Source of the DNA: Raja brachyura
Taxonomy: Eukaryota
Direction of reading: 5' to 3'
Length of the DNA stretch: 64,000 nucleotides
Assembly: GCA_963514005.1 (NCBI GenBank)
Contig: OY740812.1
Span: forward strand, 5,580,001-5,644,000
Under the pieces are notes generated by a model. That model saw only the letters and a list, made by a program, of their open reading frames with translations. It made no database searches and had not been told where the DNA came from. How positions within the stretch are numbered: position 1 is the stretch's first letter; every line of letters begins with the position of its first letter. The position numbers and the translations under genes were made by a program. Positions 404 to 61,932 of the stretch are shown piece by piece.

Positions 404-532
404 AAGAAAGGAACTGCAGATGCTGATTTAAACGGAAGATAGACACAAAAAGCTGGAGTAACTCAGCGGGTCAGACAGCATCTCTAGAGAAAAGGAATAG
501 GTGACTTTTTGGGTCGAGACCCTTCTTCAGAC
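404..532 (-). mobile_element. Penelope-tail short element (hammerhead motif mutated)
   Basis: Reverse complement reads CTGAAGAAGGGTCTCGACCCAAAAAGTCACC...CAGCATCTGCAGTTCC, the same family as 23912-24033. Confidence 0.8.
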
Positions 533-615
533 AGAAGTTAGTGGATTGGTATGCTGGTTGCCTTTGGGAGAGAGAATGGATGTACAAGATAGGGAAAACC
601 ATTCATTTACAATAC

Positions 616-859
616 NNNNNNNNNNNNNNNNNNNNNNNNNNNNNNNNNNNNNNNNNNNNNNNNNNNNNNNNNNNNNNNNNNNNNNNNNNNNNNNNNNNNN
701 NNNNNNNNNNNNNNNNNNNNNNNNNNNNNNNNNNNNNNNNNNNNNNNNNNNNNNNNNNNNNNNNNNNNNNNNNNNNNNNNNNNNNNNNNNNNNNNNNNNN
801 NNNNNNNNNNNNNNNNNNNNNNNNNNNNNNNNNNNNNNNNNNNNNNNNNNNNNNNNNNN
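616..859. other. Assembly gap (244 N)
   Basis: Run of n characters. Confidence 1.
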
Positions 860-2179
860 TTCTCTCCCTCGTTTATTCCATTGCTTCCCGTGTACTATGT
901 TTATATATTCTGTTGTGCTGCTGCAAGTAAGAATGTCATTGTTCTATCTGGGACATACGACAATATAACACTCTTAACTCTATGGGGAAAGCAATCCGTC
1001 ATAACCCAGTCTACAACAGACAGTCACCCATGAGATGAATTCTGATTTTCTAAGAAGACTTTGTGTTTTCTTCGCAGTGGACAGCCTGGGCGGATACTAC
1101 ATGATATTAAAATAGGACTTTTGCATCTGGAAATTAAACTATTGGAAGGAACAGCTGGAGCAGAGATCAATCCTGTGAAAAGCTTTGTGCAATCTTGGCA
1201 TCACATTCTAATCTCCTCCTCCAGAGCGCTGAATGCCACAGAATTATTCACCTCAAACGATGTTTGGGAGACCAGCCTGGATTCTCCTAAAATGAGTTCA
1301 TAAACCCTCCACTGAACACGTGGCCAATATTTAGATCAACTACATAAAACTATTGGTTGTCCACCAGCCACTCTGGGTTATCTTTATCCACAGGCATTGT
1401 ATTAATTACGTTGAGCAGATACCTGTGTGAATAGCTGTTGTTCTACTACTAGATATTGGAATTGAACCACATCTCAGCAGTCAAGACCAGATCATGCCTC
1501 TGCACGTTTCCTCTATGCCTTCTGGTGTCACCATCCAGCTACCATCTGCCATCCTCTGTGGTCCGAGTTTGGCAAGTCACCTTTAACCAGGCTCAATAAT
1601 GAAGCTTCGGAAACCTTCCTGCAATTGAGGAACTCAAGCAACAGAGCAAGACAAGACCAAAGTGAACTGAACACAAACATGTCGCATTAATAGTCTTGGA
1701 TGTAGGCTGGGTACATGTTAAAGGGTGATGGGATGCACTGACATCAAGTCAAACTGCCTGCTGTCCCGATCACTCCGAACGTTGTACTGTTGTACAGAAA
1801 CCATGTAACAGCTCGACTAGTTTGCAATGTAAGCCTTTGCAGGTACTTCCTTTTTAATCAGCGTAAACATTTACACAGGCAATGTGAAATGGCAAGGTTC
1901 CTTTTCTAAAACACGTACTGAAAAAAACATAAATAAAGATAGTCCATGTTAGGTGTTCTGACTTTATTGATAACTGGCATTGCTGGATCTCTATCAGGCT
2001 ACTTGGATTGATCAACAAAGGATCAGTAATGACGCCAAGGCTTACGGTTCAATGGTACTTTATTGGCGTGTACTTAAGTTCAGTGAAGTTTTTTTTGCAT
2101 ACAGTTCAGTGACAATCCAACTATATATTTTAGGCACAAACATAATACCTTCCACCAACATCCAAATATGAGAAGTTCT

Positions 2180-2488: not shown

Positions 2489-2585
2489 GAGTCTGAAGAA
2501 GGGTCTTAACCCAAAACATCACCTAGTTGTTTTCTCCAGAGATGCTGTCTGACTCGCTGAGTTACTCCAGCTTTTTATGTCTATA
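2489..2585 (+). mobile_element. Penelope-tail short element (hammerhead motif mutated)
   Basis: GAGTCTGAAGAAGGGTCTTAACCCAAAACATCACC...GCTGAGTTACTCCAGC. Confidence 0.8.
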
Positions 2586-2687
2586 ATCAAACTCACTGGT
2601 CTGATTACATAAATCATTTAATCTGACCTGAAGGCCAGGCATCTCACAGCATGGAAAGGGTCTTGCTGCATTTATTGTCTTTTGCAG

Positions 2688-4361: not shown

Positions 4362-4825
4362 TAGGAGGAAATTGCAGATGCTGGTTTACACCGTAGACAC
4401 AAAATGCTGGAGCAACTCAGCAGGTCCACAGAGCCTCTTGCCCAGAATAGGTGAACCGAGGATGAGTGGACATAGGTGAAAAGATTTAATAGGAATCCGA
4501 GGGGGTAACCTTTTCACTCAAAGGGTGTTGGGTGTATGGAACAAGCTGCCAGAGGTAGTTGGGACAGGGACTATTCCCACATTTAATAAAGTTAGACAGG
4601 TTTGCAGGGATATGGACCAAATGTGGGCAGGTGGGACTAATGTAGCTGGGACATGTTGGCAGGTGTGGGCAGGTTAGACAGAAGAGCCTGTTTCCACACT
4701 GTATCGCTCTATGACTAAGCAGCATCTCAGGAGAAAAGCAATAGGTGTCATTTCAGATCGAGACCCTTCTTCAGACTCAAGAAGAAATGTCTCGACCCGA
4801 AACTTCACCAATTCATTTTCTCGTC
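4362..4825. mobile_element. Fold-back Penelope-tail element interrupted by a plus-strand CR1 3' fragment (~4426-4716)
   Basis: The Penelope-tail sequence breaks at CTCAGCAGGTC and resumes at AGCAGCATCTC. The intervening DNA is a CR1 3' end. Confidence 0.7.
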
Positions 4826-15287: not shown

Positions 15288-15606
15288 TTAAGTGATATGA
15301 AATATTTACTTCAATTATTTCTGATCAGTTAATTTGTGAAGTAATAAGATACTGGTTTGCCCTCGTCTCCCACCATTTTGACTTCCTTCATTTATATTGC
15401 TCAACTCAGACAGCTATTTGCAGTGTTCAGATAAAACTCCTTTAACACAACCATCTGCAACTACAACCTTCCCCCTTTTCGTATCGCCAACACATCAATT
15501 AACAGCTGTCGGACGGATTGGGAAGTTATAACTGGATGGACAGCACCCATACACTAACATAGACATATGTAGAAGTCCAATCACTTGGACAGAACAACAT
15601 GCTTAC

Positions 15607-15819
15607 TCGGAGTCTCTTGATCCCAGCACGTGTTATCTGTTGACAATCGTACAGCTCTATCCTCTCCAGACTGTGACAGTTCTTTAGATGCTCCAGCGAG
15701 GCGTCTGTGATCAGCGGGCAGTTATCCAATTCTATAACTTCCAATCTGTCATGAGCACAGGCCCCGTTCCCAAGATGGCGGATACCGTCGTCAGTGATCA
15801 ATTCACAGTGAGACAAACT
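15607..15819 (-). CDS. FBXL20: FBXL20 exon 14, 213 bp (LRR)
   Basis: ctgcag|AGT TTG...CTC CGA|gtaagc translates SLSHCELITDDGIRHLGNGACAHDRLEVIELDNCPLITDASLEHLKNCHSLERIELYDCQQITRAGIKRLR, seen inside ORF 15526..15849. Confidence 0.97.
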
Positions 15820-15924
15820 CTGCAGAGGGGAAAATTGCACTGTGAACAACTTTCAATGCTTTCAACATAAGTTCCAGAAAGCAAATGGAATGAGAAAACA
15901 GATTAGAGCAGGAATTGAATTGGG

Positions 15925-16245
15925 GCAGCACAGAGCGCAGTGGTAGAGTTGCTGCCTTACAGTGCCGGAGACATGTGTTCGATCCTGACCTCAGGTGCTG
16001 TCTGCACGGAGTTTGTACGTTCTCCCTGCGACTGTGTGGGCTTTCTATGGATGCTCCGGTTTCCTCCCGCACTCCAAAGACGCCCAGGTTTGTTGGTTAA
16101 TTGGCTTCGGTAAGTTGTAGAAATTGTCCCCAGTGTGTGAGGGTTAGTGTACGGGTGATCACAGATTAGTGTATGGGTGATTACTGGTTGGGGCAGACTT
16201 AGTGGGCCGGAAGGCCCGTTTCCGTGCTGCAACTACAACTCTAAA
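15925..16245 (+). mobile_element. V-SINE (HE1-like)
   Basis: GCGCAGTGGTAGAG head, GTTCGATCC B-box, V-domain, and GGGCCGGAAGGCCCGTTTCC tail. Confidence 0.85.
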
Positions 16246-17749
16246 GTGAAAGCACGATCATTCTAAAAGGAGTTGAAAAGTGAATTGAGGAATAGAGGAG
16301 ACGCAGAAGAAATTAGGGAAATAATTCAGAGAGTGGGATTAAGGTAGCAAGAGAAGGGGGTGATGCACATCTGTCAGTGGTCTGTGTATTTCAGTGGAAT
16401 ATTGTCCAGTTTGATGCCTGGAACGGATGTTAATGGGATACGGCCAGGAAGGATTTAACATTTAAGATTTCAATTGACTTCTAAATCTTGTCCCCCAAAG
16501 CACAAGCTCCTTTAATGCAGAAATAATAGTTTTCTTCTACAACCTGAGATTTGTTTTTCTACCAAATGAAGGTTCCCTGCAAAGGATGTTTAGTCACACT
16601 CCAAACATTTCAGAACGTTCTGCCTTCCGGCAGTTGTTGTCCATGGGGAAGCAGAAAAGAGCAGACATCAGATTCTAAATCAGTAGCTGAGAAAAACCGT
16701 GAGCCATAGAAAAGCAAGTGGTTAGGAAAACTAAGATCAGAAAAACTGCAGAAAATAGTGCATTTGACAAACATAACCACAAGAGCAAAACTGTGAAGCG
16801 GAACAAAATTAGAGGGACAGCAATTTTTTTTTTTCTTAAAATAGACAAATTTACAGTAATTGGGGGGTCTTCTAATATATTTCTTGAAAAGGTTTATTTT
16901 TTGAAGAATATATTACAAAACCCAATTACAGTAAATTTGTCTCCATTTACAGAGTTTAAGCATAGATTTTCAGGGAACAATTGGAGATTCAATTTCTGCT
17001 GATTGGTAGATATATGGACTAAATTGGACACAAAAGGCAGACGTGTTAATATCTCAGGTTGAGAGTACTTCAATGTATTTGGCAAAACAGCTTAAAGTAC
17101 CAGTGGATTTACAAAGGTAGACAAAAATGCTGGAGAAACTCAGCGGGCAAGGCAGCATCTATGGATCGAAGGAATATTCTTTCTTAAACAGTGGATTCAC
17201 AAAGGTTAGACCAGCAAGCCCATAGCCCAGTTGGTAGTGTGGTCTTTGCTTGACAAGTCGCTGGAAGCTTATGTTCGCTCTCAAACAGTTTCACACAATG
17301 GAGGAGCCATCAAATATATTTCAGGGGAAAGAATGCAGGCAGAGGCAAGAAGGAAAGGCAAAGGAGACAAACAGAACTAATAAATGGCAAACATTTTGTC
17401 AACTTGCAAATGGAGAACCCCCCCACTAATTATTAATCTTTTAAACAAAGTAATTGTTTGAGGATCCAACTCATTACATGTTATTTGGTCAGAATGCAAG
17501 TGACAATAGATGCCAGATATTTGCCGATCAACACTTTGATGATTAAAGCAGTTGGCAAGCAAAAAGTAGGTGCCAACTATCTTTTACAATAGCAAGCCGG
17601 GAACAAGGGTCCTTGGCTCAAAATTAGAGATCGGTTCATTAGGAATTATGTCAGAACCATTTTCGTTCAGAGTAGTAGAAATCTGAAACTCAAGAAACAC
17701 TGGGCCTGGACACAACTGCAAAGTTCCAAAACTGAGAGAGAGCTGCACA

Positions 17750-18020
17750 GAGGCACAGCAGTGTAGTTGCTGCCTTACAAGTGACCCGGTTTCGATCCTG
17801 ATGCTGTCTGTACAGAGTTGGTACATTCTCCGTGACCCCGTGGGTTTTCTCCGGGTGCTCCGGTTTCCTCCCACATCTCAATGACATACAGGCTTGGCCG
17901 GTTAATTGACTTCTGTAAATTGTCCCCAGTGTGTAGGATGGTGCTAGTGTAAGGGTGATCGCTTGTCGGCGCGGACTCAGTGGGCCGAAGAGCCTGTTTC
18001 CACGCTATATCTCTAAAGTC
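17750..18020 (+). mobile_element. V-SINE (HE1-like)
   Basis: V-domain CCGTGACCCCGTGGGTTTTCTCCGGGTGCTCCGGTTTCCTCCCACA and tail GGGCCGAAGAGCCTGTTTCC. Confidence 0.85.
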
Positions 18021-18329
18021 TAAAGCTGTCCATTCAACAAGGACGTTATCAGTGATTGAAGTTTTGCAGTTAGAGGGAGTCAGAAACAAACTGAATAATG
18101 ACCAGACACGACACGGTGAATGGGGACACAAGGTTGGAATCTGGAGCAACAATCAATCTGCTGGAGGAACCCAGCGGGGGTGGGGTGGGAGCATGACTAG
18201 TGAGTGGAAGGAATCCTGATGCAGGGTTTCGCCAATCATTCCTTTCCCCCAGAGGCTGTGTTACCCACTGAGTTCCTCCAGCACAATGTTTGTTGACACG
18301 GTCACTACTTGCTCCCTGTTTCTACTCAC

Positions 18330-19550: not shown

Positions 19551-19932
19551 CCTGTTCAAATCAATTGAAATGAACAAGACTGCACCATATATCAGCTTTA
19601 AGAGGTCAAAGAGTAATATGGGACCCTCAACTCAAGGAACTGAGCAATCAAAATATATATTTTGAAAGGAACTGCACATACTAGTTAATCTGGACATCCC
19701 CATCCTTTTTCTCCCAAGATGCTGCCTGACCCGCTGAGCTACTCCAGCACTTCGCGCCTATCTTCAAGTTAAGCGATCACATGGATGAAGTGCTATTTAG
19801 GGAGTCAGTACTTCTGCACTGATACGTGTGATTACTCAATGCAACCACCAGCTAAAAGTCAGCACGCTTCAGCCCATTATCTGTTTCTTTGGGATAAGCT
19901 TCATGGTCCCATAGTATCTGATAACAGTATTT

Positions 19933-20290
19933 AAGAAGGAACTGCAGATGCTGGAAACTCGAAGGTAGACAAAACTGCTGGAGAAACTCAGCGGGTGCAG
20001 CAGTATCTATGGAGCGAAGGAAATAGGAAACGTTTCGGGCCGAAACCTTTCTTCAGACTGATGTAGGGTGGGGGGAAGAAAGGAGAAAGGAAGAGGAGAA
20101 ACCAGAGGGCTGAGGGAGAGCTGAGAAGGGGAGGAGTCAGCAAGGGCTACCGGAAATTGGAGAAGTCAATGTTTATGCCGCTAGGGTGCAGACTGCCCAA
20201 GCGGAATATGAGGTGCTGCTCCTCCAATTTCCGGTGGTGCTCACTTTGGCCATGGAGGAGGCCCAGGACAGAAAGGTCGGATTCGGAATT
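19933..20290 (-). mobile_element. Penelope-like element 3' end: GIY-YIG C-terminus plus hammerhead-bearing tail
   Basis: Reverse complement translates SDLSVLGLLHGQSEHHRKLEEQHLIFRLGSLHPSGINIDFSNFR* (stop at 20147-20149). A pyrimidine tract follows, then CTGAAGAAAGGTTTCGGCCCGAAACGTT (20056 down to 20029). Confidence 0.85.
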
Positions 20291-22165: not shown

Positions 22166-23818
22166 CTGCAAAAGAAAATCACAACGAAAGTAAAATTTTA
22201 TAGGGATATTTGAGGTGGTCATGTGATGCAATGCTGTGCCACAGGTGGTTCAACAGCTTCCTGATCTTCACTCACTAGAGGGAAAATAAAACAGCAGTAC
22301 AACTGGGCAGTTTCCCTTCACTTCTTGACCAGAGGAATAAAGCATCCCCCCTTTGGATAGCACACAATGTTAGAGATAGACAAAAGGAAATTAAATAAAG
22401 CGGGCTGAACAGAGGAGAGAAGAATCACGGGGCTGGGAGAGAAGCATTAAATGGACTTTACAGACCTCCATCCCCTAAAACTACACTTTAAAAGGTTTGA
22501 AATACAGCTGATTTCATTAGTCAAAGTTATAACCTTTCTTCCAGGTAAATGAGAATGGAGGGAAGCGGTTGAAGTGGGCAAGGAATTATACGCAGATGTG
22601 TTGGGTAAAACACGTTTTTATTACTGCCAAGAGCTTTGATCTTCCTACTGGTAATGAGAACTAAAATATTATGACATTCATACAACGACAAGGCTTGGTA
22701 ACACAAATTATACTCAGTTGGAGGATTTGCGCGCACAGTAAACTGCGATTACACATAACTAAAAAAAGATCAAGCATCAAGATGGGCCTCATAGACTAAG
22801 AAATTTAAGAGCTTGAAGATTTGAGCTGCAAAGTGGAAGCGGATTTGAAATGATTCAATTTGTGCTTCAAATAGATTACTGCAATGTTCAGTGGTTGGAG
22901 AATATGGCATTTATATATTTCTTTACGTTGAGGGTGAAGGAAATAAATACTTTCACCTACATGTTTCAAGGTAACAACCTGGATAGTTTATTGTTCTATA
23001 GCTCCACTATTTATTATATTTATGCAATTCGCAAAAAGTAGTGCAGCTATAAATGATTATGAAAAGTGAGCTTACATATTGTAATATCAACAATATCTAT
23101 TTGTTAAAAGGTTGAAGCAGAACCCTTTGGCTTGCTTATGTCTCAGATGACAGGAATGTAGAGAGAAGCCAAAGATCGGATCAGCCATGATCATAATGTA
23201 GGAAAGAACAGAGTTGAGGGATTGTGTGACCCACACTACTTCCCAAGCTCTTGTTCAGATCTGATCTGCTTCTATCAGAGTAGTTATGATCTGGAACTCT
23301 CAGCCTGCAGAAGCTGCTGAAATGGATAGTCGAGGCTTTCAAAGAGATATTTGTGTAAGTCCTCAAGGAAAAATATTTTGTGGGACTTTTGGGAAAGAAT
23401 GAGGAAATGGGACTGTCAATACTATACTAAAAAGCCACAGACAAGATGGGATGAATAGCCTCTTCAACTGCTATTAGGGTTTATGGTTGGATGTGAATAC
23501 CAAGAGCTGCACAACAATCCTCACAGCCCCTGCAGAGACAATAATTACTGTGCATTTCATTCAGTGGATTTTATTCAATTCTAAGCAAGGTTGACATTTA
23601 TTATCCACCATTAACCACTGCTGATCTGACTAACTTGTCAGTCAGTTGTGTTCCAGCAGTGGAGATGCTGCCTTATAGCGCCGTAAACCCGGGTTCAATC
23701 CAGACTACGGGTTTTGTAGTCAATACGGAGTTTGTACGTTCTCCCCGTGACCGCGTGGGTTTTCTCCGAGATCTTCGGTTCCCACCCACACTCCTAAGAT
23801 GTACAGGTTTGTACGTTA

Positions 23819-24033
23819 GTTACACAAAAAGCTGGAGAAACTCAGCGGGTGCAGCAGCATCTAAGGGGCGAAGGAGATAGGCGATGTTTCGGGTCGAGAC
23901 CCTTCTTCTGACTGAAGAAGGGTCTCGACCCGAAACGTCGCCTATCTCCTTCGCCCCTTAGATGCTGCTGCACCCGCTGAGTTTCTCCAGCTTTTTGTGT
24001 AACCCTCGATTATCCAGCATCTGCAGTTCCTTA
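23819..24033. mobile_element. Fold-back (inverted) Penelope-tail element with 16-bp TSD
   Basis: Arms 23819-23908 and 23914-24003 are 89/90 complementary. ACAGGTTTGTACGTTA is duplicated at 23803-23818 and 24034-24049. Confidence 0.9.
23912..23939 (+). ncRNA. Minimal type I hammerhead ribozyme core motif (Penelope-associated type)
   Basis: CUGAAGA-A-GGGU(CUCG)ACCC-GAAA-CG-UC contains the CUGANGA box, helix II hairpin, GAAA box and GUC triplet. Helix III is reduced to the palindrome ACGU. Helix I is disrupted in this copy, so activity is unproven. Confidence 0.65.
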
Positions 24034-25283
24034 ACAGGTTTGTACGTTAATTGGCTTGCTATAAGTGTAAATTGTCCATTGTGTGTGTAAGTGTGCAGGG
24101 ATTGCTGGTCGGTGCGGACTCGGTGGGCCGAAGGGTATGTTTCCATGCTGTATCTCTATACTAAACAATCTAGAGTAACAAAAAGGCCTATAATGTTTAA
24201 GCAGTGCAGATGTCCTTCTTGAAGTGAACAAGATGGATTTTTATGACAATCAAGTTTCGAAACCTACTGATTTCTATCTTTATATTCTAAATTTATTTAG
24301 CTATATAAGTTTAAATCCTTTGGCTGCAGTCATGGGGTTGGAATGCGTTTTGGATTACATCTAGGATTCTAGTGCAATTTAGTTTAGTTTATTGTCACGT
24401 GTACTGAGGTACAGTGAAAAGCTTTTTGTTGCCTGCTGACCAGTCAGCCAAAAGACAATACATGATTACAATCAACCCATTTACATTGTACAGATACATA
24501 AGGGAATAACATTTGGTGCAAGGTAAAGCCAGCAACAGTCCGAGGGACATCAGAGGTTCTAGATTACTACACCAGTAACTTAACCAAAGTGTGTATTTAT
24601 GGCACTGGATATTGGGTAACAGGTGAGAAAGGAGGCAGAGGGGTGACCAGATAGAACATAGGGGTGACCAGACAGAACAGTGGGGGATTGCCTGGAAGTG
24701 CAGTAGTGGTGGTGGCATTATTTTAGACAAGAACATGAATATGCAGAGAATGGTGGGATATGGATCATGCACAGGCAGGTGAAATTAGTATAGTTTAGCA
24801 ACATGTTAGGCAGAGACATTATGGGGTGAAGTGCTTGTTCTTTTGCTATACTTTTCTATGTTCTATAGAAAGCAAGTTTTACCTCTTATTTGAACCGGCC
24901 AACATGCCCTATTGAAATCAGTACAAATTGCCAGCTGAGAATAAGAAATGGCCTGGTCAACTTGCCCTATGTTGTTGTAGAACCAGCGGGTAGACTCGTG
25001 TGAGTACTAAGCTCATACACTAGTTGGGCAAAGAACCCAAGGGTCATTTTCACCCTTAGGAATCCCTCCCACCCCACACCTCCCCCTTCCCAGGCACCAA
25101 ATAATGGTTCCTACCAAGGCAAGGAAATGGAGGGGAAATAATTGAAGGAAAATAATTTCTAACAAAACAGGCTTCCTGGCTAAGAGGGCAAGACCTCGTC
25201 ACAGCTGAACAATCATTAAGGTGGGTCTATTTGACCAAACTTTGAGGCAAAATAGTGCGAATTATTTGGGTTTTTGAACTAAT

Positions 25284-25375
25284 CTTGAAGAAGGGTCTCG
25301 ACCCAAAACGTCACCCATTCCTTCGCTCCATAGATGCTGTCTCACCCGCTGAGTTTCTCCAGCATTTTTGTCTAT
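25284..25375 (+). mobile_element. Penelope-tail short element (core mutated)
   Basis: TTGAAGAAGGGTCTCGACCCAAAACGTCACCCATTCC... Confidence 0.8.
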
Positions 25376-25560
25376 ATTCAGCTTATCAATGTAACCTCTG
25401 CTCCATAAAATGAGGGTACAGCTTTGAATTAATATTCTTTGCACTTGTATTAGAAGTACTTTGCTCCTCTGAAATCCACAGAGATTTAGCAATGTTTAGC
25501 ATCATTTGGTTTTTTAATGTTTTTACAAACAGTTTTCACTTTCCCATCAGTTTCACTTAC

Positions 25561-28363: not shown

Positions 28364-28548
28364 AGAAAGGAACTGCAGATGCTGGTTTACATCGAAGATA
28401 GACACAGAATACTGGAGTTACTCAACAGCACAGGCAGCATCTCCTCAGTCTGAAGAAGGGTCTTGGCCCAAAATGTCACCCATTCCTTCTCTCCAGGGAT
28501 GCTGCCTGTCCCGCCGGGTTACTTCACCATTTTGTGTCTATCTTCGGG
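28364..28548. mobile_element. Fold-back Penelope-tail element, diverged
   Basis: A minus arm (28364-28443) faces a plus arm starting AGTCTGAAGAAGGGTCTTGGCCCAAAATGTC. Confidence 0.75.
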
Positions 28549-28882
28549 TTGACTATTGAGTTGTAATACTTACTCTAATCAGAGTTTCAACTGAGTGAGG
28601 CTCTTGGGACATGGAGCAAGTATTTGCAGCATGTAGCAAGGCCATGCCATAAAGAGAGACCAATAGCCTCATAAGCCATGAGAGCCAAGTTCAATCCAAA
28701 TCCTTAGTATATCATCATATCAAATTATAGACCAAATGCAGGTTATATTGATTATTTTCCTCACCAATATAAACAAGGCACGATTTGACAAGAAATGTCA
28801 CCCTATCTTGTGAGTAATGGATGTTAATAATAGATTCCCTGAACCAGAAATTACAGAGAACTTCTGTAATCTAGTTCAACTT

Positions 28883-31630: not shown

Positions 31631-31769
31631 CTACAAAGCAAGAAAGCAAAAGATGATCAAGAATCCATTTTAAGTGCACAATACCAATTTTCCAACAAGA
31701 CTTTCAAAGGGATCTCATTCTTCTCTCTTTATGCCATTGTTGTTGGGAGAACAAAGGAGGAGCCCGACT

Positions 31770-32145
31770 CCAGGTGAGGCGGAGGTTCACTTGCTCCTCC
31801 TCCAAATTCATCTACTGTATCCGCTATTCCAGGTATCAACTTCTGTACATCGGCAAGACCAAGCGCAGGCTCGGTGATCGTTTCGCTGAAAACCTCCGCT
31901 CATTCTGCCTTAACCTACCTCATCTCCCGGTTGCTCAGCACTTTAACTCCCATTCCCAATCTGACCTTTCTGTCCTGGGCCTCCTCCATTGTCAGAGTGA
32001 TGCCCAGCGCAAATTGGAGAAAGAACACCTTGGGTAGCTTGCATCCCAGCGGTATGAACATCGACTTCTCTAACTTCAAATAGCCCTTGCTTTCCCTCTC
32101 TCTTCCAGTTCTCCCACCAGTCTTACTGTCTCCGACTACATTCTA
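31770..32145 (+). mobile_element. Penelope-like element GIY-YIG endonuclease fragment
   Basis: ORF 31774 gives RFTCSSSKFIYCIRYSRYQLLYIGKTKRRLGDRFAENLRS...PVAQHFNSH (IY..YIG motif). After a frameshift it continues LGSLHPSGMNIDFSNFK*. Confidence 0.88.
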
Positions 32146-32687: not shown

Positions 32688-33325
32688 ATAGAAACATAGA
32701 AACACAGAAATTAGGTGCAGGAGTAGGCCATTCGGCCCTTCGAGCCTGCACCGCCATTCAATATGATCATGGCTGATCGTCCAACTCAGTATCCCGTACC
32801 TGCCTTCTGTCCATACCCTCTGATCCCCTTAGCCACATCTAACTCCCTTTTAAATATAGCCAATGAACTGGCCTCAACTACCCTCTGTTGCAGAGAGTTC
32901 TAGAGACTCACCACTCTCTGTGTGAAAAAAAGTCTTTCTCATTTCAGTCTTAAAGGATTTTCCCCTTATCCTTAAGCTGTGACCCCTTGTTCTGGACTTC
33001 CCCAACATCGGGAACAATCTTCCTGCATCTAGCCTGTCCAACCCCTTAAGAATTTTCTAAGTCTCTATGAGATCCCCCCTCAATCTTCTAAATTCCAGAG
33101 AGTATAAACCAAGTCTATCCAGTCTTTCTTCATAAGACAGTCCTGACATCCCAGGAATCAGTCTGGTGAACCTTCTCTGCACTCCCTCTATGGCAATAAT
33201 GTCCTTCCTCAGATTTGGAGACCAAAACTGTACGCAATACTCTAGGTGTGGTCTCACCAAGACCCTGTACAACTGAAGTAGAACCTCCCTGCTCCTATAC
33301 TCAAATCCTTTTGCTATGAAAGCAA
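32688..33325 (-). mobile_element. CR1/HER1-like LINE 3' fragment
   Basis: ORF 33057 gives [18 protein letters not shown]...[25 protein letters not shown], with a (CATAGAAA)n tail on the plus strand. Confidence 0.93.
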
Positions 33326-34199: not shown

Positions 34200-34480
34200 A
34201 GTAGATGAGGTTGGAGGAGGTGCAAGTGAACTTCTGCCTAAACTGAAAGGATTGTTGGGGTCCCTGGACAAAGTTGAGGGAGGAGGTATAGCGACAGGTG
34301 TTGCATCTTCTGTGGTTGCAGGGGAAGGACCTGGGGAGGGGGTGGGAAGAGAGGAGTTAACCAGGGAGTTGCGGTGGGAACGGTCTCTGCGGAAGTCAGA
34401 AAGGGGTGGAGTTGGGAAAATGTGGCGAGTGGTGGGATCCGGTTGAGGGAGGTGGTGGAAATTTCACAGGATTATGTGTT
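34200..34480 (-). mobile_element. Penelope-like element fragment (linker upstream of GIY-YIG)
   Basis: Reverse complement translates VQGPQQSFQFRQKFTCTSSNLIY, homologous to the start of the 31774 fragment. Confidence 0.75.
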
Positions 34481-41349: not shown

Positions 41350-41640
41350 GCGTTGGAGCTACTGCCTTACAGCACCGGAGATCCGGGTTCAATCTTGACT
41401 ACAGGTGCTGTCTGTACGGAGTTTGTACAATCTAGCCATGACCTGTGCGGGTTTTCTCCGAAATCTGCCCACACTCGAGACGTACAGGTTTGCTGCCTAA
41501 TTGGCTTAGTGTAAATGTAAAATAAATTGCCCCTAGTGTGTGTTGGGTAATATTAATGTACGGAGATCGCTGGTCGGTGCGGACCCGGTGGGGTGAAAGG
41601 CTTGTTTCCGCGTTGTATCTCTAAACTAAACTAAATTAAA
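41350..41640 (+). mobile_element. V-SINE (HE1-like)
   Basis: GGGTTCAATC B-box, V-domain, and tail CTCTAAACTAAACTAAA. Confidence 0.85.
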
Positions 41641-42589
41641 CATGAAGGCAATCCTAAGCCTGATTCTTCTTCCTTTGCAGCAGGAGGAATTGCTTCAACT
41701 AAAACATGGGAACGTTTTTCTTCATTTAAGAAATAGGGTGTTGGATTATCAGCAACATTTTCGGCTGTTTTTTCTTTATTTCATCAGTATCTTCGCAGTA
41801 TATATGTCCATACTCTGGTCCCAATAAAATAGTATTGATGGACAATAAAACTTTACTCAAAATCACCTCCCGATTTCTTTTCATATAAGGCTGTAGTCCT
41901 ATTGATTAGTGATTGCGTTATCAATTGCAGCAATGCATTAATATTTCAGCCTGCATTAGATAATTAGCTACATATTGAGCTTTGCTGTAGCCTGCGTCAG
42001 TTTTGTTCCAATTTCCTACTATCTGGTAGCTCCACAGAGCTAAAGTCGATGAGTTATTAAGTAATAAATCAATCAAATCGCATTTCATTTGCAGTGAAAT
42101 ATCCTTCCCAAGGGGCCAAGTTTCAAAGTTGCTTTAATTCATTGGCTGGATGCTTGGAGCCTAGACCCGAACAGACTATATTGCATCTGTTTTGTTACAA
42201 AGGTGTCATATTAAACTTGAAAAAGAACTAACTAGGTCTCCAAGGAAGCTCAAGACATTATGAGTACGCCCTATGGGAACACAATTGCAGGAAACATCAC
42301 AGCAATGTGACAGTTCGCAACAACTAAAATGACACAGGTGGAGAAATGAATTTCCATACTTATTTCTAATGGCAAAATGCTGTGCTATAATTAAACAGTT
42401 GTGCCTGCTTACTTGCTTAAATCTTTACAAAATCAGTTGGGCCAACTCTTAATGCTGTTATTTGTCTGTCTCCTCACGATGAGAAAGGCAACAGCACTAG
42501 CGTTGAACATGTAGGCCCACTGTCTCTTCTCATGCCAAAGTCAAAGCTTTTATGATCTTGTTGTGCATGCTTGTACGAAATGCTACATT

Positions 42590-43035
42590 AGACAATAGAT
42601 AATAGCTGCAGGAGTAGCCCATTCGGCCCTTCGAGCCAGCTCCGCCATTCACTGTGATCATGGCTGATCATCCACAATCAGTACCCCGTTCTTGCCTTCT
42701 CCCCATATCCCTTGACTCCACTATCTTTAAGGGCTCCATCTTACTCTCTTGAAAGCATCCAGAGAATTGGCCTCCATTGCCTTCTGAGGCAGAGAATTCC
42801 ACAGATTCACAACTCTCTGGGTGAAGAAGTTTTTCCTCATCTCTGTTCTAAATGGCCTACCCCTTATTCTTAAACTGTGGCCCGAGTTCTGGATTCCCCC
42901 AACATCGGGAACATGTTTCCTGCCTCTAGTGTGTCCAATCCTTTAATAATCTTTTATGTTTCATTACGATCCCCTCTCATCCTTCTAAATTCCAGTGTAT
43001 ACAAGCCCAGCCGCTCTATTGTTTAAATATATGAC
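42590..43035 (-). mobile_element. CR1-like LINE 3' fragment
   Basis: Reverse complement of the CR1 ORF2 end and the GGCTCGAAGGGCCGAATGG tail. Confidence 0.88.
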
Positions 43036-46847: not shown

Positions 46848-47082
46848 GAACCTCGGAATTGTAAATGCTGGTTTACAAAAATAAAGGCACAAAGAGTTGG
46901 AGTAACTCAGTGGTTCAGGCAGCATCTCTGGAGAAAAACATATTTTGGGGCGGCACTCCTCTTCAGAGCTGAAGGACCTTAAGTGTGAAGAAGGGTATCG
47001 ACCCAAAACATTACCCATTCCTTCTTTCCAGAGATGCTGCATGTCCTGCTGAGTTACACCAGAATTTTGTGTTTATCTTCCC
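46848..47082. mobile_element. Fold-back Penelope-tail element, diverged
   Basis: A minus arm (to about 46966) faces a plus arm starting GTGAAGAAGGGTATCGACCCAAAACATT. Confidence 0.7.
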
Positions 47083-47351
47083 TGAAACTTACTGGCCTCA
47101 CTAGAAAAAATGTTGTTCTGCAAAATAACATCCTGAAAACAATGAATTAAAAGGTATTGGAGTATTAATAGAATATAGAACATCTGTTATTCTGTTATCT
47201 GATAGTCTGTAAAATCAATAGTCCAGCAGTAGTGAGTGTACAGAATAATGGTGTGTCACTGTACGTAGAGCAAGCTTAAGTGGCAAAACAGACAAAATTA
47301 AAAGGTAACATTGATGCACTCCTGGGATGCATCGATGCATCCCAGGAATCC

Positions 47352-47826
47352 CTGATTCCTGGGATGGCAGGACTTTCATATGAGGAAAGATTGGATAGAC
47401 TCGGCTTGTACTCGCTGGAATTTAGAAGATTGAGGGGGGATCTTATAGAAACTTACAAAATTCTTAAGGGGTTGGACAAGCTAGATGCTGGAAGATTGTT
47501 CCCGATGTTGGGGGAGTCCAGAACAAGGGGTCACAGTCTAAGGATAAGGTGGAATTCCTTTAGGACCGAAATGAGGAAAACATTCTTTACACAGAGAGTC
47601 GTGAGTCTCTGGAATTCTCTGCCACAGAAGGTAGTTGAGGCCAGTTCATTGGCTATATTTAAGAGGGCGTTAGATGTGGCACTTGTGGCTAAAGGGATCA
47701 GGGGGTATGGAGAGAAGGCAGGTACGGGATACTGAGTTGGATGATCAGCCATGATCACATTGAATGGCGGTGCAGGCTCGAAGGGCCGAATGGCCTACTC
47801 CTGCACCTATTTTCTATGTTTCTATG
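47352..47826 (+). mobile_element. Young CR1/HER1-like LINE 3' fragment
   Basis: Open frame [38 protein letters not shown]...GYGEKAGTGY* with a TTTCTATG tail. Confidence 0.95.
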
Positions 47827-48402: not shown

Positions 48403-49156
48403 TAAAGCGGTTACCTCAGTGTGGCACAGTGGTGCAGTGTACAATCCTTGGCTTTCCAGTTGCAAGAACTGCATTTAACAGTGAGAAAGTCTTGTGCTCC
48501 ATCCCAGATTTGTGCACAATCAACTGTGCAATTTATAAAATTCATAAATATGAACAAAATTAACGGAAATCAATTCAATAATTTTACTTGATTGATCGTA
48601 TGCAGTCACACAGTTCTGACTTCCCAAGTCTGTTTGAAACAAAACAAATCTTTTGTTTAAATAAGATGTTTACTTCACAGATATGGGCTCGAAATATGAA
48701 GGCAGAAAGATGGAAGCGAACACAAGCTATTGTGCTCATCCCATCACTAAATGAGAAACCAGTGTTTAAACCCCCTGAAAGCTTTATTTAAATCAAGTTA
48801 TTAAACAATTTCCAGGTACAATTGCGATAGAAAGAATGCTGACAGGAAATGAAGATACTAACTTCCTCCAAAGTAAATTACATGCAAAATAAATGTTCAC
48901 ATCTTTACTGATTGTATGAAATTAATCGGAAAGACTCAAATCTCATGCTATTAACAACGTAAATAGAAGCCAGGAATCCTTGAATCTACACTACCATTCT
49001 ATAAAATCACATTCTCAATCATCAGTCCACTTTATGACCACGATTCCTCTAGCTGGATTTCACTGCGGTCTTTAAGTCTAACTGATCTCGGCTTCAAACT
49101 ACTCAATGGCCAAGAATTCACAGTGAATTCCAAAATATTCACACTGAATAAAGAAA

Positions 49157-49368
49157 GGTAGATAAAAATGCTGGAGAAACTCAGCGGGTGAGGCAACATC
49201 TATGGAGCGAAGGAATAGGTGACGTTACCGGTCTGGACCCTTCATCAGACTCTGAATAAAGAAAGGGGGGGGTTACACAAAAAGCTGGAGAAACTCAGCG
49301 GGTGCAGCAGCATCTAAGGAGCGAAGGAGATAGGCGACGTTTTGGGTCGAGACCCTTCTTCAGACCCT
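49157..49368 (-). mobile_element. Two tandem Penelope-tail elements
   Basis: Copies at 49157-49251 and 49265-49368 are separated and flanked by CTGAATAAAGAAA (49144, 49252, 49369). Confidence 0.85.
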
Positions 49369-52077: not shown

Positions 52078-52203
52078 GAGTCTGAAGAAGGGTCCCGACC
52101 CGAAACATCACCATTCCTATCCAGAGATGATGCCTGTCCCACTGAGTTACATTAGCATTTTGTGTATCTTCGGTTTAAACCAGCAACCGCAGTTACTTCC
52201 TAC
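52078..52203 (+). mobile_element. Penelope-tail element with an intact hammerhead core (AUC triplet)
   Basis: GAGT-CTGAAGA-A-GGGTCCCGACCC-GAAA-CATC-ACC at 52078-52112. Confidence 0.8.
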
Positions 52204-53135: not shown

Positions 53136-53688
53136 TTTACTCCAGTATTAAGGAGATTGCTTTTCATGAATCATCTACAATTACAACACCAATTAGAGTT
53201 TGAAAGTAATTAATTTGCTGCAAAATGCCACAAGTAATCCTGAAAGTGATGGCAAAGATGCTAATGTAATTGCAGGTCTTCCTCCTTGGCAGTTCATCAA
53301 AAGAGATTGGCACATCAGTCAATGAGGAAACACTTCTAGAATATGCACATGAACAGAAGCAAAGCAAGGTGTAGGACTCCAGCCGACATAGCCATGCTAT
53401 CCTAAAAAAAGTTTCTTCTCACATGATGGAAAACCCAACAACGCAAAAGGACTGAAACAAATAATACTTCACCACCAAGTAAAATTGTCCTAATCGGGCA
53501 TCTAGAAAAAGAGATGATAGCCTTAAATTAAGAAATCAGTCATTCAGGACTGATTTTTTTTTTTTTTTCCCTGTTTATCTTTTATGTTCTCTAGTCAGCA
53601 GTTCTATGGAGATCAGCCTAGGGCTGGAGCACCTGAGGAAATGTCCTACTTTTCTTTTTTGCTCTATTACCAATCTTCTCAGATACTT

Positions 53689-53780
53689 AAGATAGACACA
53701 AAATTTTGGAGGAACTCAGCGGGCTAGGCAGCATCTCTGGAGAGAAGGAATGGATGACTTTTGGGTCGAGATCCTTCAGA
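53689..53780 (-). mobile_element. Penelope-tail short element (core mutated)
   Basis: AAGATAGACACAAAA...GACTTTTGGGTCGAGATCCTTCAG. Confidence 0.75.
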
Positions 53781-54143
53781 TACTTGTTCTGCAATCATTT
53801 AAAAGCCTCGGTGTGCTTTGTAAAATATTTATATCTTCAGAAGCTTAAGCAAACACAATACGATCAATTCACCAGCAAATGAGGTGCAGCTGTACACGTG
53901 CATCACTGAAGTAATGAGGTGGGTCAGCAAGTCCGAGAAAACGGCAAAATCGGTTTTAGAAGGACATAATTAAACAATTACACCTAATTTGCCCTCAACA
54001 TTGAAAAACTGATTCTTAAAAAGTGAGCTAGGATATTACAGAAGATATGGGGAAAAAAGGGAAAAAAGTGATGTTACTAGAAATGCAGTGAAATCCATTG
54101 AGAAGGGATGTTCATTTTCTGAAAGAATGAAGCTGTCTTGATT

Positions 54144-54625
54144 CCAGACTGATTCCTGGGATGTCAGGACTTTCATATGAGGAAAGATTGGATAGACTCG
54201 GCTTGTACTCGCTGGAATTTAGAAGATTGAGGGGGGATCTTATAGAAACTTACAAAATTCTTAAGGGGTTGGACAAGCTAGATGCTGGAAGATTGTTCCC
54301 GATGTTGGGGGAGTCCAGAACAAGGGGTCACAGTCTAAGGATAAGGGGGAATTCCTTTAGGACCGAAATGAGGAAAACATTCTTTACACAGAGAGTGGTG
54401 AGTCTCTGGAATTCTCTGCCACAGAAGGTAGTTGAGGCCAGTTCATTGGCTATATTTAAGAGGGCGTTAGATGAGGCACTTGTGGCTAAAGGGATCAGGG
54501 GGTATGGAGAGAAGGCAGGTACGGGATACTGAGTTGGATGATCAGCCATGATCACATTGAATGGCGGTGCAGGCTCGAAGGGCCGAATGGCCTACCCCTG
54601 CACCTATTTTCTATGTTTCTATGTT
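54144..54625 (+). mobile_element. Young CR1/HER1-like LINE 3' fragment
   Basis: ORF 54161..54532, nearly identical to 47352-47826. Confidence 0.95.
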
Positions 54626-56349: not shown

Positions 56350-57110
56350 TACTGCAGAGAACTGTGCTGGGAACATTGCTATTTGCCATATATTACCTCC
56401 TACATCGACATCTGAAATGTTCTGATTAAATTTGCAGAAAGCATGAAAGTTGACGATTGTTATGGATAGCGAGGATCGTTGTCCAAGACTGCAGCAGGAT
56501 ATAGATCAGATGGAAAGTTGGATAGAAGGTTGGCAGATGGAATCTCACCAGGATGTTGCCCACAATGCAGGATTTTGTGAAAATATTGGAGAGGCTGGGA
56601 ATGGAATCTCTGGAGCAAAGAATGAGAGGTGACCTGACAAAAGTATACAAAATTATGAGACTCACAGGTATGGTAGACAGTCAAACCTTTTTGTTTCTCC
56701 CATGGAAAGAATATCAAAAAGGAGGGTATCAGTTTAAACTGCGTAATTAAAGTAGCTCTGAGGGGGGTTAAACACAGAGAGGTAGATTTCTGAAACAAAT
56801 TGACAGAAGTGGTTGAGGAATCAGATACAATTACTGTGTAAAAGGCATTTAAATAAACGGTCATAGAAAAATAAAGTCCTAATGTGGAAAAATGGAATTA
56901 GTGTCGATCAACAAGATATCCTTGTGGCTAAAGGGATCAGGGGGTATGGAGAGAAGCCAGGTACGGGATACTGAGTTGGATGATCAGCCATGATCATATT
57001 GAATGGCGGTGCAGGCTCGAAGGGCCGAATGGCCTACTCCTGCACCTAATTTCTATGTTTCTATGTAACAAAGGGATTGGCATAGACAAGGTATGCGAAA
57101 GGGCTAATTT
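56350..57110 (+). mobile_element. Old CR1 relic with a young CR1 3' tail (~56920-57066) inserted in it
   Basis: LQQDIDQMESWIEGWQME and LEQRMRGDLTKVYKIM are CR1 RT-region motifs. The young tail matches the end of the 47352 and 54144 copies. Confidence 0.75.
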
Positions 57111-57899
57111 CTCAACAATACATTTAATGATATAGCAAATTCTTCCATCATTTCCAACCCCAAAATCACACTCAAATCTCCTTCAGCAGATTTTCATTTA
57201 TTTCTTATTTAATTCTGTATACTTCAGTGGCACTGGATATTTCAAATTTCCGCACAGATTTGTGTGCTATGAATAGCCAAAAGGAAAACAAAACTTGCAT
57301 TCATCATATTATCCAGACTGTAATAATAATGTCCCATTTATCGTGCTCATCATTTTCAAGATCAGCCACTGGGGCCAGAGGTGCAACCGTGACAGTTAAT
57401 TTGCATGCAGGAGTATTTTCCAAATACAGAACGGTATCACTGAATACTGAACAGTGCAGCTCTGGGAAAGAATGAAGATCAAAAGATCACAAGATCTTCT
57501 TACAAAATGTCCAGTCAACTTCAATGTCCATCCGACCCACTATGTTTAAAAAAAAATCTATTCAAAATCCATTCAAAGAACAATATTTCCTACAATGTAA
57601 TATTCCCTCGGGAATTCAATTGATTTTAGTCACCAACCCGAAATATTAACTATTCCTTTCAGCAGAGATATTCCTTGATCAATAGAGTTCTTCCAGCATT
57701 CAGCTTCATTTTAGATTATATAAACTTGAGTGAGTTGAAGTAGGTAAGGGGGCAGGGTTACTTAAAACGAGATTGAACAGGCAATTGCACAGAATTCTTC
57801 TTAACATACAATTTGTCAAAAACAATTCAACTTCAGCTTCAAAAATCCTGGAAACGTCAATAAACAATCCCTAGGTCTTTTCTATTTTAATGGCTGAAC

Positions 57900-58975
57900 A
57901 GTCCTGACAGCATGTGAATACACAGCTAAGCAATTTCAAGATCAATTAATCAGTTCAAAGCTGTCGTTCTGACACAGCTAGCTGCAAATGATAATGGACC
58001 ATTAAATATGCAACAAGAGGGATAGCTCTACGAACATCTCAGCCTCAATGAAGACTGAAGCCATTATGCGAGTGCTAAAGGCTGAAGCATTTGCAACCAT
58101 GTTTAGTCAGAGGTGTTGAATAGACTTTCGGTCTTTGCTTTCTCTGCACATTGTCATCATTGAGTCAGTTTTCAGACTATTCAATTAATTCCATGTGATA
58201 CTGAAAATCATCCGACATTGGTTACTGCAAAGCAAATGTGCCAATACAGAAGGGTCCCGACCCAAAACATCACCAATGCATGTTCTCTGGAGGTGCTACT
58301 TGACTCGTTAATCACTCCAACTCCAGCATTAAAGACAAAGAAAGTTTGCAGATGCTGGAGTTAAAACAGAACATTGGAAGAAGTCTGCAGGTCAAGCAAT
58401 ATCTGGGGAAGCAAAACGTGTTGACGTTTCCTGTTCGGGTTCATCATCAGTCCTTCTAGCATTTGTTTTTTTGCAGCACTGAAGAACTGCACTCCAGAAC
58501 AAGCCCCTTCTCTAGCCACACTCGTCCAATACATCTGTGGCAGTAGCATCCTTTCACCAATGTGGAAACCAGCGCTGTCCTGTTCACAAAAAAAAGGGAC
58601 AAATCTAATCTGGTCAATTACCACCCAATTCCTGTCAACAAAGTGCTGGTAGATAGAATAGATAAATGATAGCCTGCTCACCAGAGCCCAGTTTAGAATT
58701 AGCTAGGACCTCATCACAACCTTAAACCAAATTTGGACCAAATAACTAACAAGAACTCAAGGGCAGTTATTAGAGCAGCATTTGACCAGGTTTGGCACCA
58801 AGGACGGCTGATAAATATAGATCGCCCTCCCTAATTACACTGAACGCACCTACCTTCACTAGAAAGAATCTAGCGTGTCGGGAAAGTGGCTCAAAATCAC
58901 CTTCATAAGGACAACTAAGAGTAAACAACGAATGCTGACCATGCTCACACTGCTCAGTCCTTGATAATAGAATAC
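57900..58975 (+). mobile_element. Decayed CR1/L2-group LINE RT relic, interrupted by Penelope-tail-like pieces (~58245-58470)
   Basis: Scattered RT-like motifs: KAEAFATMFSQ, KSNLVNYHPI, LLTRAQF and AAFDQVWHQG. Confidence 0.55.
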
Positions 58976-60999
58976 ATGTAAAAAAAATATATACAAACCA
59001 TGAAATGGACTAATCAGGTAAAACAGTTGAACCGAATAGAGGAGATGAACAAAGGGGGATGTCTAGTTACACTTGCACTAAACACTTTGAGAAACCACTC
59101 TCCATGGCTGCAGCAACCTGAGCTCTATCCTGAACTTGGGTGCTGTCCGCGTTTATGCATTCTTCCTGTTGTCATGTTGATTTATTGCAGTCTCCTCCCA
59201 CATCCCAAAGACCTGCTGCTAAATTGAGAAGCTACTGTATATTACACCCCCCCCCCCCCCCCCCACCGAGTCCAGGTAGGCAGCAAGGGACCTAGTGCAG
59301 AGATGGTACAAATGTTGGAATGGAATAGGTTACAGAGAAATGTGGGAGAATAGAATTGATGGGAATACATGGATACACGATTAGGCCTTCTCAATCATAA
59401 ATAAAAATAAGTTTAGGTTTACTCCACCCACTGATCAATTTGTCCTGGAACATGGTTATTTGTCCTGAAACACATTAACCAGCTTCCTTCATACAAATAT
59501 TCACAAACTTTCTTCCACAGAGCAAAAAAATAAAAACATGAATGGCAGATAATCAGGAAGGAATCTATTGGAAAATAGCTCTTTATTTTTGGAGAGTATA
59601 TTGTGATAAACATTCAGTCCACAAAGTTTATGGACAAGTCTCAATGGAATGTTTTTGAAAAAATCATAGAATTCTCATTAGACTTTTCATGCCTCATGCT
59701 TGTGCATCTTATTTTTTTAATCTGGAATAGACAAACACCAATTGAGTTAGCCACGAGTGTGCATTATGGAAGATAAGCCTTTGCCAATATCTAATAGAGA
59801 TCACAGCTGTGAACCTGGGCGAATCATGGGTTTGCTCCACAACGACAGACGACTCCGCTTGCATCAACACTTACGGCCCAACTTATTTATAAATGGCATC
59901 TTTATGATCAAAGCTTTCACGCCAGCACAATGTACATTCCTAACTGCCTACAGCACAATAGCTCTTGATTACACAAAAATACTTCTTGATATATTTCCAC
60001 TCTCAGCTAAAAACAATGTTTGTGTATTTTAATTACCTGATGCTTAATTCAATTGTGTTTCCTGCCCAAATTATTTTTGGTAACTGGCAATGCGAAGAAC
60101 AGGAATATTTTTAGAAGAAAATTGTATAAACAGATTGGATTGTGTTCCTTTAAATTCCCAGGTCTGGGTTTTCCCAAAACAAAAGCCATGATTTAAATAG
60201 ACTCAAATTGCTATCAACACCAAGCAAATAAATATCCCTACAACTTCTTACTACATCATAATTAAAAGCAGAAAGGTGCCATTAAGTCACAGATGTTTTC
60301 CCAAATACCTCCCCATGTAATTCCTTTGACTACTATTTGAACATACCTAGGAGCTGTATTATGCATGCAGTAATGTAGTATCAAAATTAAAGGTTAATTA
60401 ATTGAAATCTGGTTGTGGTCAAGCCAGAGGAACAATCCCAATGTCCTTTGGCTAGCCTCAAATAATTTTTTTTTAAGCAAATAGAAATGGCAAATGGAAC
60501 CTCAGTATGGGCCAAAGAACAACAGCAAGAAAATTAAAGTGCTCAAACATAAGCCAAAATTACATCAAATCCAAGAATTAATTTACAACATTAGCACCCA
60601 GACAATAGCACTAGGGCTTGGGAGTGAAATAAACAAAGTATCAAAAATAATCTTGTAAATCTCAAATCAATACTTTGCACAAAATCTTTGTTAAAGAACC
60701 TCCAGTTCTTTTGAAGGCATATAATTTTTGCTAACATTACACAGAATTATGGAAAATGCTATGAAATCAAGATATACATTTTTTTAAAGATTGTGGCACA
60801 GAATGTTACAAAAAGCAGAATAAAGTGCTGCTGGATTCCACTTCCAGAAATGGAACTTCAACCACAACTTAACTCAGTGACAGATGTATTCAAGATTACC
60901 CAATCTCAAGCAGATTTTGTCAGTTTAGGCCCACACATTTATCTGCACTTCAATGGTTAAAAGGTTAAAACGTTTACAGATCCAGCACCATACGCCCGA

Positions 61000-61932
61000 A
61001 AGCAAACAATTCCCTACCACCAACAGTCTCATGTTTGGATGAACTTGTTCTTATCCTGAACAACTTCTCTTTTGACTTCTCTCATTTCCTACAAGGTGTA
61101 GCCATGAGAACCTGCATGAGCCCTAACCATGCTCGTCTTTTCATTGGCTACGTGGAGCAATCCCAGTTCCAAACCTTCTCTGGTACCACCACCACCGCAT
61201 TCTATGTTGCATTGACAATAGCATTGGTGCTCCCTCCCATATTCACATGGAATCATCAGGTTTATCACCTTCGCTGTTAACTCCCAACATCTCGCAAATT
61301 CACGGACCATTTCTGACACTTTTCCTTTTCTAGATCCATCTTAAAAAACAAACTATCTACCATTGTTTATGATAAAATGATTGATGGCACCCTCTCCAGT
61401 ATTTGCTTCATTCCTGAAGCTTCTGCTTTCACCCAATCTTCCTCCAAACAGAAGAGTTGCCTAGTCCTCACCTTTTACCCCACCAGCCTCTGCAGCCAGC
61501 GTATCATCCTTCAGCATTTCTGCCAGCTGCAATGAGATCCCACCAAAAGCCACGTCATCTCTTCCCCACCCCTTTCCATCTTCCACAGGGACCACTCCCT
61601 TCATATTCACTGGCCTGCTTATCTTTCCCCTCTTCCATCCTGGGAGCCAAACAGCCCTTCAATGAAAGAATCACATGCAGCTCCTCCAGCCTTGTCTACT
61701 TCATTCTCCCAACTCCACCCCTGCCACACCTAGCACCATCTACCTGTCATCCTTCACGCCTCTGTCCACCAATCACCCACGGGACCCAGTCTCACCACTC
61801 ACCTCTCCTCATTATCACTGGCTCTTTCCTCTCCATTCTTAGTCCTGATAAAGAGTTTCAACCCAAAACATTGGCACATTACCACACATTTGCTGTTCAA
61901 ACCACTGAGTTTCTTCAGCAGATTGTTTGTTG
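61000..61932 (+). mobile_element. Internally deleted, decayed Penelope-like element (RT fragment to tail)
   Basis: ORF 61035 gives ELVLILNNFSFDFSHFLQGVAMRTCMSPNHARLFIGYVEQ, resembling the PLE RT G.AMG motif region. Later come ITCSSSSLVY and a degenerate CTGATAAAGAG..ACCCAAAACATT tail. Confidence 0.75.

Follow-up and report, generated by a model that had tools for sequence, protein, structure and literature searches.

Minimal hammerhead ribozymes in the repeats of Penelope-like retroelements, their occurrence as scattered single motifs, their pairing on opposite strands and the tails of these elements are already published, and they are the closest described relatives of a repeat unit dispersed through a stretch of 64,000 nucleotides (nt) of the Raja brachyura genome (assembly GCA_963514005.1, contig OY740812.1, positions 5,580,001 to 5,644,000 of the forward strand; this entire stretch is the window). 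As argued below, the unit is a segment of a Neptune-type Penelope-like element, and its numerous short copies are probably run-off products of reverse transcriptase (RT) reaching the uncut 5' end of the element RNA.

The minimal hammerheads of metazoan Penelope-like elements have the same core as the unit in R. brachyura, with the extra base before helix II, a G-C first pair and a loopless, palindromic helix III; like the motifs here, they are mostly single, scattered genome-wide and thought to belong to truncated elements, and opposite-strand pairs have been noted among them (PMC4209133). Helix I, 2 bp long here, comprises 4-5 bp in the Schistosoma family and 2 bp in Drosophila virilis, and the ~34 descriptor matches per Mb found here can be set against the ~4,000 motifs of the coelacanth and ~9,000 of Xenopus, counted with a different descriptor (PMC4209133). 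The accessible parts of that paper contain no map of copy ends.

Neptune-type endonuclease-positive (EN+) elements share with the element described here a C-terminal GIY-YIG domain with a CX2-5CxxC linker, 5' truncation, an inverted truncated partner and a 30-40-bp tail that is often present at one end only (PMC8557442). The linker is common to Neptune and Nematis and absent from Penelope/Poseidon, according to the accessible parts of the same source, in which Neptune elements are not described as having a dominant class of copies like that observed here, 95-130 nt long and with their 5' boundary fixed at the hammerhead. In the anole Poseidon element PAc, two internal RT start sites define the tail and both target strands are extended, as we propose for the element here, and hammerhead cleavage is dispensable for insertion and unseen in RNA reads (PMC11167929). 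The open reading frame (ORF) of PAc begins at stem II, and RT initiates within it (PMC11167929), unlike the element in R. brachyura, where the likely ORF start lies ~165 nt after the CUGA box and both classes of 3' ends precede it. Finally, the metazoan retrozymes without long terminal repeats (non-LTR retrozymes), reported in one cartilaginous fish, resemble the unit in being non-coding, in carrying a type I hammerhead and in their kinship with Penelope pseudo-LTRs; their definition requires two or more units in tandem succession, every one containing a complete hammerhead, whereas the copies here are solo or head-to-head and belong to an autonomous lineage (bioRxiv 10.64898/2026.07.22.740005).

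The repeat unit and its parent element

Positions in the unit are numbered from the C of the CUGA box (0), with the predicted cleavage between +27 and +28. A profile made from real copies of the unit finds 24 matches in the window, that is, ~1 per 2.7 kb rather than the one per 5 kb or so of the original prediction, an earlier reading of the window from its sequence. In a random genome sample of 126 evenly spaced 10-kb stretches (1.26 Mb in total), the unit has 501 profile matches, or ~400 per Mb, which, if extrapolated, corresponds to about a million copies in the genome. The 30-nt core is matched exactly at 40,809 places (20,464 + 20,345) in the 2.7-Gb genome, and its reversed control at none.

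By its sequence, and as originally proposed, the unit carries a minimal hammerhead of type I like those of Penelope elements, with putative self-cleavage. The CUGANGA, GAAA and NUH boxes, in type I order, are the family majority, and all three are kept in 85 of the 255 copies of the random sample that could be anchored; the extra base before helix II, the G10.1-C11.1 pair and the palindromic helix III are all present, and helix II comprises 4 bp. Each of the two pairs of helix I is kept in 30 of 33 long copies and a third pair in 2 of 33; with an RNA start at -3, helix I could gain no further pairs from upstream. A structure-based minimal-hammerhead descriptor, one of the checks suggested along with the original prediction, yields 43 matches in the 1.26-Mb sample (~90,000 genome-wide if extrapolated) as opposed to 0, 0 and 0 in three dinucleotide resamples; within the window, the CUGANGA, GAAA and UH boxes are intact in 4 of 24 copies, and the full hammerhead descriptor is passed by none of the 24. 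Two further suggested checks gave no support: the Rfam scan of the window returned four matches at E <= 1, with no hammerhead among them, and a search for two-sided compensatory changes among families found none, the changes being one-sided and pair-preserving, namely replacement of U-A by U-G, both in helix I and, in 14 of 21 copies of one loop class, in helix II. Other family-level differences are loop changes and GUC to GUU, and three subfamily majorities are identical over 0 to +27, a comparison that is biased by the anchoring. For the monomeric leader, the predicted probability of helices I and II is near 0, and the predicted ribozyme dimer fold, at -6.7 kcal/mol, lies far above an alternative dimer at -19.7 kcal/mol. 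The published relatives either cleave poorly or depend on the protein.

A search with the GIY-YIG remnant of the window produced 150 scored matches, and 29 loci were fetched besides the window's own; in 22 of these 29, the CUGA box follows the endonuclease match at a distance of 157-221 nt. One locus (L103) contains an open frame of 459 aa with RT-like sequence, a C-X4-C-X2-C linker, which is also found in other copies, and GIY-YIG; the Pfam match of this frame to GIY-YIG (E 7.5e-4) is below the cut-off, and its homologues carry PF00078 and PF01541. The closest named protein relatives come from sharks and rays and show 64-68% identity over most of the query. None of the copies examined yielded an intact full-length ORF.

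Walking to the 5' end of the element showed that the unit also precedes the ORF, with the sequence extending beyond the tail as far as a probable initiation codon near +165. At 16 of 25 ORF-start loci, all or part of the unit lies in line upstream, and five of these (L201, L202, L204, L212 and L216) begin at -1 to -6 against unrelated flank. Because the unit follows the endonuclease gene and its 3' untranslated region (UTR) and also precedes the ORF, it is the pseudo-LTR junction segment and is both the last 90-130 nt and the ORF leader of a Neptune-type Penelope-like element, in accord with the original proposal of mobilisation by the Penelope RT/GIY-YIG machinery. The apparent layout, a C-terminal GIY-YIG with the linker, is that of Neptune/Nematis, the group being assigned by domain layout with a linker common to both; by addition of two overlapping copies, the whole element would be ~3.6 kb long.

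The 3' UTR is longer in a young subfamily (L103, L108 and copies in L228-L287) than in the main subfamily. Divergence within the young subfamily is ~2%, and L103 and L108 are 98.8% identical over 1.1 kb. The UTRs vary between subfamilies while the bases from -4 onward are kept, and in all subfamilies the UTR is pyrimidine-rich and ends in CAG.

The ends of the copies and the origin of the short class

Among the 255 anchored copies, 181 retain the CUGA box. The 5' ends pile up at -8 to +3 (mode -3) with a gap upstream, and the copies that pass this boundary are truncated at scattered places; the clustering of ends at the CUGA box that had been predicted is thus borne out as discrete ends with no smooth truncation series. 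Upstream homology to any UTR in our library extends over at most 9 nt (mode 3) in 137 of the 181. Because the subfamilies differ upstream, the mapping was redone on young copies. An exact-core set of 83 copies, from most of the first 100 places listed and covering the first 4.5 Mb of contig 1, includes 66 solo copies, of which 33 end at 2-10 nt, none at 11-20 and 33 from 21 to at least 300. Of the 55 solo copies of the youngest subfamily, 27 have their 5' end 2-10 nt ahead of the CUGA box, none has it at 11-28, and the next lies at 29; in the second subfamily, picked regardless of the upstream bases, 13 of 22 solo copies end at 0-8. The 3' ends form two classes 30-40 nt apart, near +90-105 and at +117-130 (the known tail). 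Flanking duplications of 9-20 nt accompany 23 of 33 short copies versus 32 of 300 mismatched flank pairs, suggesting independent insertions; a few of the duplication calls are distant from the copy ends and are probably due to chance.

These ends do not coincide with the cleavage site. No peak of 5' ends is seen there: of 303 clean copies, 3 start at +28, a count similar to those at adjacent positions (the counts from +40 to +48 in this survey are register artefacts), and none of 68 matches that reach upstream end at +27, the nearest ends being at +10 and +38. Ribozyme cleavage as the main route to these ends was rejected on these counts, which have low power for a rare event.

The short copies form no lineage of their own and come from the same source as the long ones, in a comparison based on clusters and nearest neighbours of ~200 copies. 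Short, long and leader copies number 88/29/6, 18/5/2 and 15/8/1 in three subfamilies. In the youngest of these, each of the nine sub-variants at +31 to +90 is represented among short as well as long copies, and divergence is 0.019 for the former versus 0.016 for the latter. Tails were found on 9 of 33 copies of the short class and on 11 of 33 of the long class (p = 0.79).

The 501 sample matches include 88 head-to-head pairs (176 copies) and 10 direct neighbours, mostly partial. The arms of a pair are more alike than unrelated copies (median 0.856 versus 0.797), and the partner ranks in the top 5% for 24 of 72. Among 74 pairs, the tail is present in one arm in 44, in neither in 29 and in both in 1 (expected 7; p = 0.0008). 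Tandem retrozyme arrays were not found in the 1.26-Mb sample. The one array detected there, a 66-nt minisatellite, corresponds to +20 to +85 of the unit, lacks CUGANGA, is present at three unrelated loci (Table 1) and seems to travel as part of a subfamily.

We consider it probable that the short copies are cDNAs that ran off the uncut 5' end of the element RNA. Transcription would start near -3, ~3 nt before the ribozyme core, and the pile-up of 5' ends would mark this start site, which we infer from sequence; reverse transcription would begin inside the leader, at about +92 or +128. When RT starts in the upstream leader of a partial-tandem transcript, it would run off after ~95 or ~130 nt and give rise to short copies, and when it starts in the downstream leader, the ordinary long truncated copies would ensue. 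Head-to-head pairs would arise by priming on both nicked target strands and joining of the two cDNA ends, and most of the RNA that serves as template would have its hammerhead uncut. The TCAGT/CCAGT at the pile-up is presumably an initiator-like motif. A DPE-like (downstream promoter element) ACGT is found 27-30 nt downstream of the supposed start, with 5 of 8 letters of the motif in PMC2377424, and Drosophila Penelope has an internal promoter in its pseudo-LTR (PMC2377424). For the anole element, RT begins internally, in vitro, at the two sites that define the tail (PMC11167929). The extra G at the 5' ends of full-length L1 copies has been interpreted as a trace of the cap (PMC2831318); here, a G at -4 is present in 8 of 11 copies of the discovery set and 8 of 13 of the random sample, or in 17 of 30 when all sets are pooled and 9 of 19 without the discovery set (p = 0.054), which is suggestive of a cap-derived G, not cleanly replicated.

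Several observations weigh against run-off from a start at -3. The G at -4 occurs in 1 of 1 and 0 of 5 copies of further sets, and in an unfiltered genome listing in 36 of 100, of which the new places account for 24 of 79 (expected 28%). The parental C at -4 is kept in 12 of 23 and 22 of 35 short copies, so that the end is no single base but extends over ~10 nt. These bases also make up a short palindrome that spans the boundary; its centre, or a position next to it, is the joint in 5 of 16 young pairs, as would be expected under a fold-back model as well. The layout differs in Drosophila Penelope, whose transcription starts 46 nt upstream of an intron with its end at helix I. Furthermore, the exact-core set was selected on bases -2 and -1 and comes from 4.5 Mb of one contig, and 23 of 204 copies remain 'unclear', probably being long copies of subfamilies absent from the UTR library.

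An unlikely alternative, and the one that survives best, is a truncation hot spot, whereby the RNA would extend further upstream and the cDNA ends would be caught at the CAG-T-CTG palindrome, through fold-back or microhomology, or behind a leader that is folded or bound by protein. The centre of the palindrome lies at -1, pairs show perfect palindromic junctions, and the predicted fold of the leader pairs +1 to +10 with the end of the tail. However, the palindrome is just 3 bp in the youngest subfamily, solo copies flanked by duplications have the same boundary, half of the young copies extend beyond it with no further stops for 18 nt, and the leader fold is no better than that of shuffled sequences (z = -1.58).

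We give still less credence to a self-propagating non-autonomous element, similar to a short interspersed nuclear element (SINE) or a retrozyme, whose short copies would retain the RT start sites and an internal promoter and give rise to more short copies. The discrete ends, the lack of coding sequence and the very high copy number fit this scheme, non-LTR retrozymes are reported as derivatives of Penelope repeats (bioRxiv 10.64898/2026.07.22.740005), and for 79 of 130 short copies the nearest neighbour is itself short, which is no more than the share of this class. On the other side, there is no short-only subfamily or variant among the ~200 copies, age and tail ratio equal those of the long copies, direct tandems are rare (10 of 501), the sole array lacks CUGANGA, and no ends map to the cleavage site. 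The original proposal of a separate retrozyme-like family accordingly gives way to a unit that belongs to an autonomous element.

Least plausible is an RNA processing site, with the pyrimidine tract and CAG before -1 serving as a splice acceptor or with a nuclease cut: although this tract is present in all subfamilies, a donor-like site overlaps the ORF start and the D. virilis intron ends at helix I, most short copies retain the bases at -3 and -2, which would be intronic, there is no shared upstream exon, and the exact donor-to-acceptor junction was seen twice, at one locus, with similar joints varying in length, on which grounds a splice or back-splice origin of the short copies was rejected.

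The locus in question (L226; G000:C16, about 43.67 Mb) is an inverted insertion in which the leader of both arms ends exactly at the donor-like site by the ORF start and is joined to the unit start. At ~15 further loci, leader pieces are joined to the unit start at variable points; these joints may be template jumps, as from an RNA end, or, rarely, come from a spliced template.

Copies and other features of the window

The loci listed in the original prediction all hold the unit or part of it (Table 1), although the match at 4362 and the left arm at 28364 lack the core. Three of these loci (23819, 28364 and 46848) hold head-to-head pairs, and several copies are in minus orientation. The elements had been described as non-coding, but the copy at 19933 extends to 20289, into a GIY-YIG remnant. 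The latter copy matches the model from -252 to +116 at E 3e-72, and the arms of the young pair at 23819 are 99% complementary.

Table 1. Copies of the unit and related features in the window, and minisatellite arrays elsewhere in the genome
Feature	Positions	Strand	Remarks
Short copy with tail	411..532	-	Decayed core; CUGA box at 530
Short copy	2490..2594	+	Decayed core; start 3 nt before CUGA box (2493)
3' fragment (+58 to tail)	4362..4428	-	No hammerhead core
Small head-to-head pair	4718..4823	.	Absent from the original list
3' fragment (+32 to +101)	17107..17176	-	No core
Old, weak copy	18216..18297	+	
3' fragment (from +29)	19699..19787	+	No core
Long 5'-truncated Penelope-like copy	19931..20289	-	GIY-YIG end, pyrimidine-rich 3' UTR, unit (CUGA 20056), tail
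Young head-to-head pair	23819..24032	.	Joined at CUGA boxes; one arm ends near +90, other has tail
Short copy	25286..25387	+	Start at +1
Asymmetric head-to-head pair	28364..28569	.	Left arm from +46, right arm from about -5
Parent-element GIY-YIG endonuclease remnant and part of 3' UTR	31756..32145	+	Unit missing; Pfam GIY-YIG E 0.009, below cut-off
Older head-to-head pair	46868..47087	.	
Two short copies, direct order	49150..49365	-	Different subfamilies
Short copy with tail	52079..52202	+	Start 3 nt before CUGA (52082)
Short copy	53672..53778	-	Decayed core
Old, weak fragment	57634..57707	+	
Two old copies, tail to tail	58248..58450	+ and -	58248-58329 (+) and 58358-58450 (-)
Old diverged copy	61839..61937	+	Downstream of degenerate Penelope-like stretch (about 61418-61840)
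66-nt minisatellite	L083:787-1157		5.6 copies
66-nt minisatellite	L089:2232-2736		7.7 copies
66-nt minisatellite	L139:6777-6974		3 copies

Further degenerate Penelope-like coding remnants lie at 34104-34463 (-) and 61418-61840 (+). A leucine-rich-repeat exon at 15526-15852 (-; Pfam LRR_4, E 0.002) resembles, we assume, the F-box/LRR proteins FBXL2/FBXL20, and much of the window is probably intronic. The window also contains 3' ends of long interspersed nuclear elements (LINEs), some of them 98-99% alike, which we take to be CR1-like (47280-47826, 54131-54623, 56921-57065, 32689-33166, 30643-31122 and 42581-43034). A second dispersed repeat family, probably a SINE, is found at 2250-2469, 16006-16237, 17827-18015, 23725-24165 and 41524-41630, and the young head-to-head pair sits inside one of its copies.

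What the short copies may record

Our literature search found no paper on this repeat family or on run-off short copies of Penelope-like elements; the repeat itself may be catalogued in Repbase/Dfam. The role of hammerheads in Penelope-like elements is stated to be open in the accessible parts of PMC8557442, and internal initiation is understood in detail for one purified system (PMC11167929). An uncut template RNA, as the copies would suggest if they end at the RNA start, would argue against cleavage and circularisation as the main route here. A further step, which we put forward tentatively and hold at somewhat less than even odds, is that a capped transcript begins with the hammerhead as its first 30 nt and that this segment also serves as core promoter; cleavage would then be an off-switch that removes the cap and the start of the leader rather than a release of unit-length RNA, and hundreds of thousands of strong-stop-like cDNAs, integrated directly, either singly or as two-armed insertions primed on both target strands, would provide in vivo support for internal initiation.

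Short repeats of this kind risk being mistaken for SINEs or retrozymes. Should the boundary correspond to the RNA start, the genome would contain about a million records of insertion in which a span of 130 nt takes in the ribozyme, the transcription start and the two RT start sites, and a short, defined RNA would become available for bench tests. The short copies would then constitute a genomic record of how a poorly understood class of elements copies itself.

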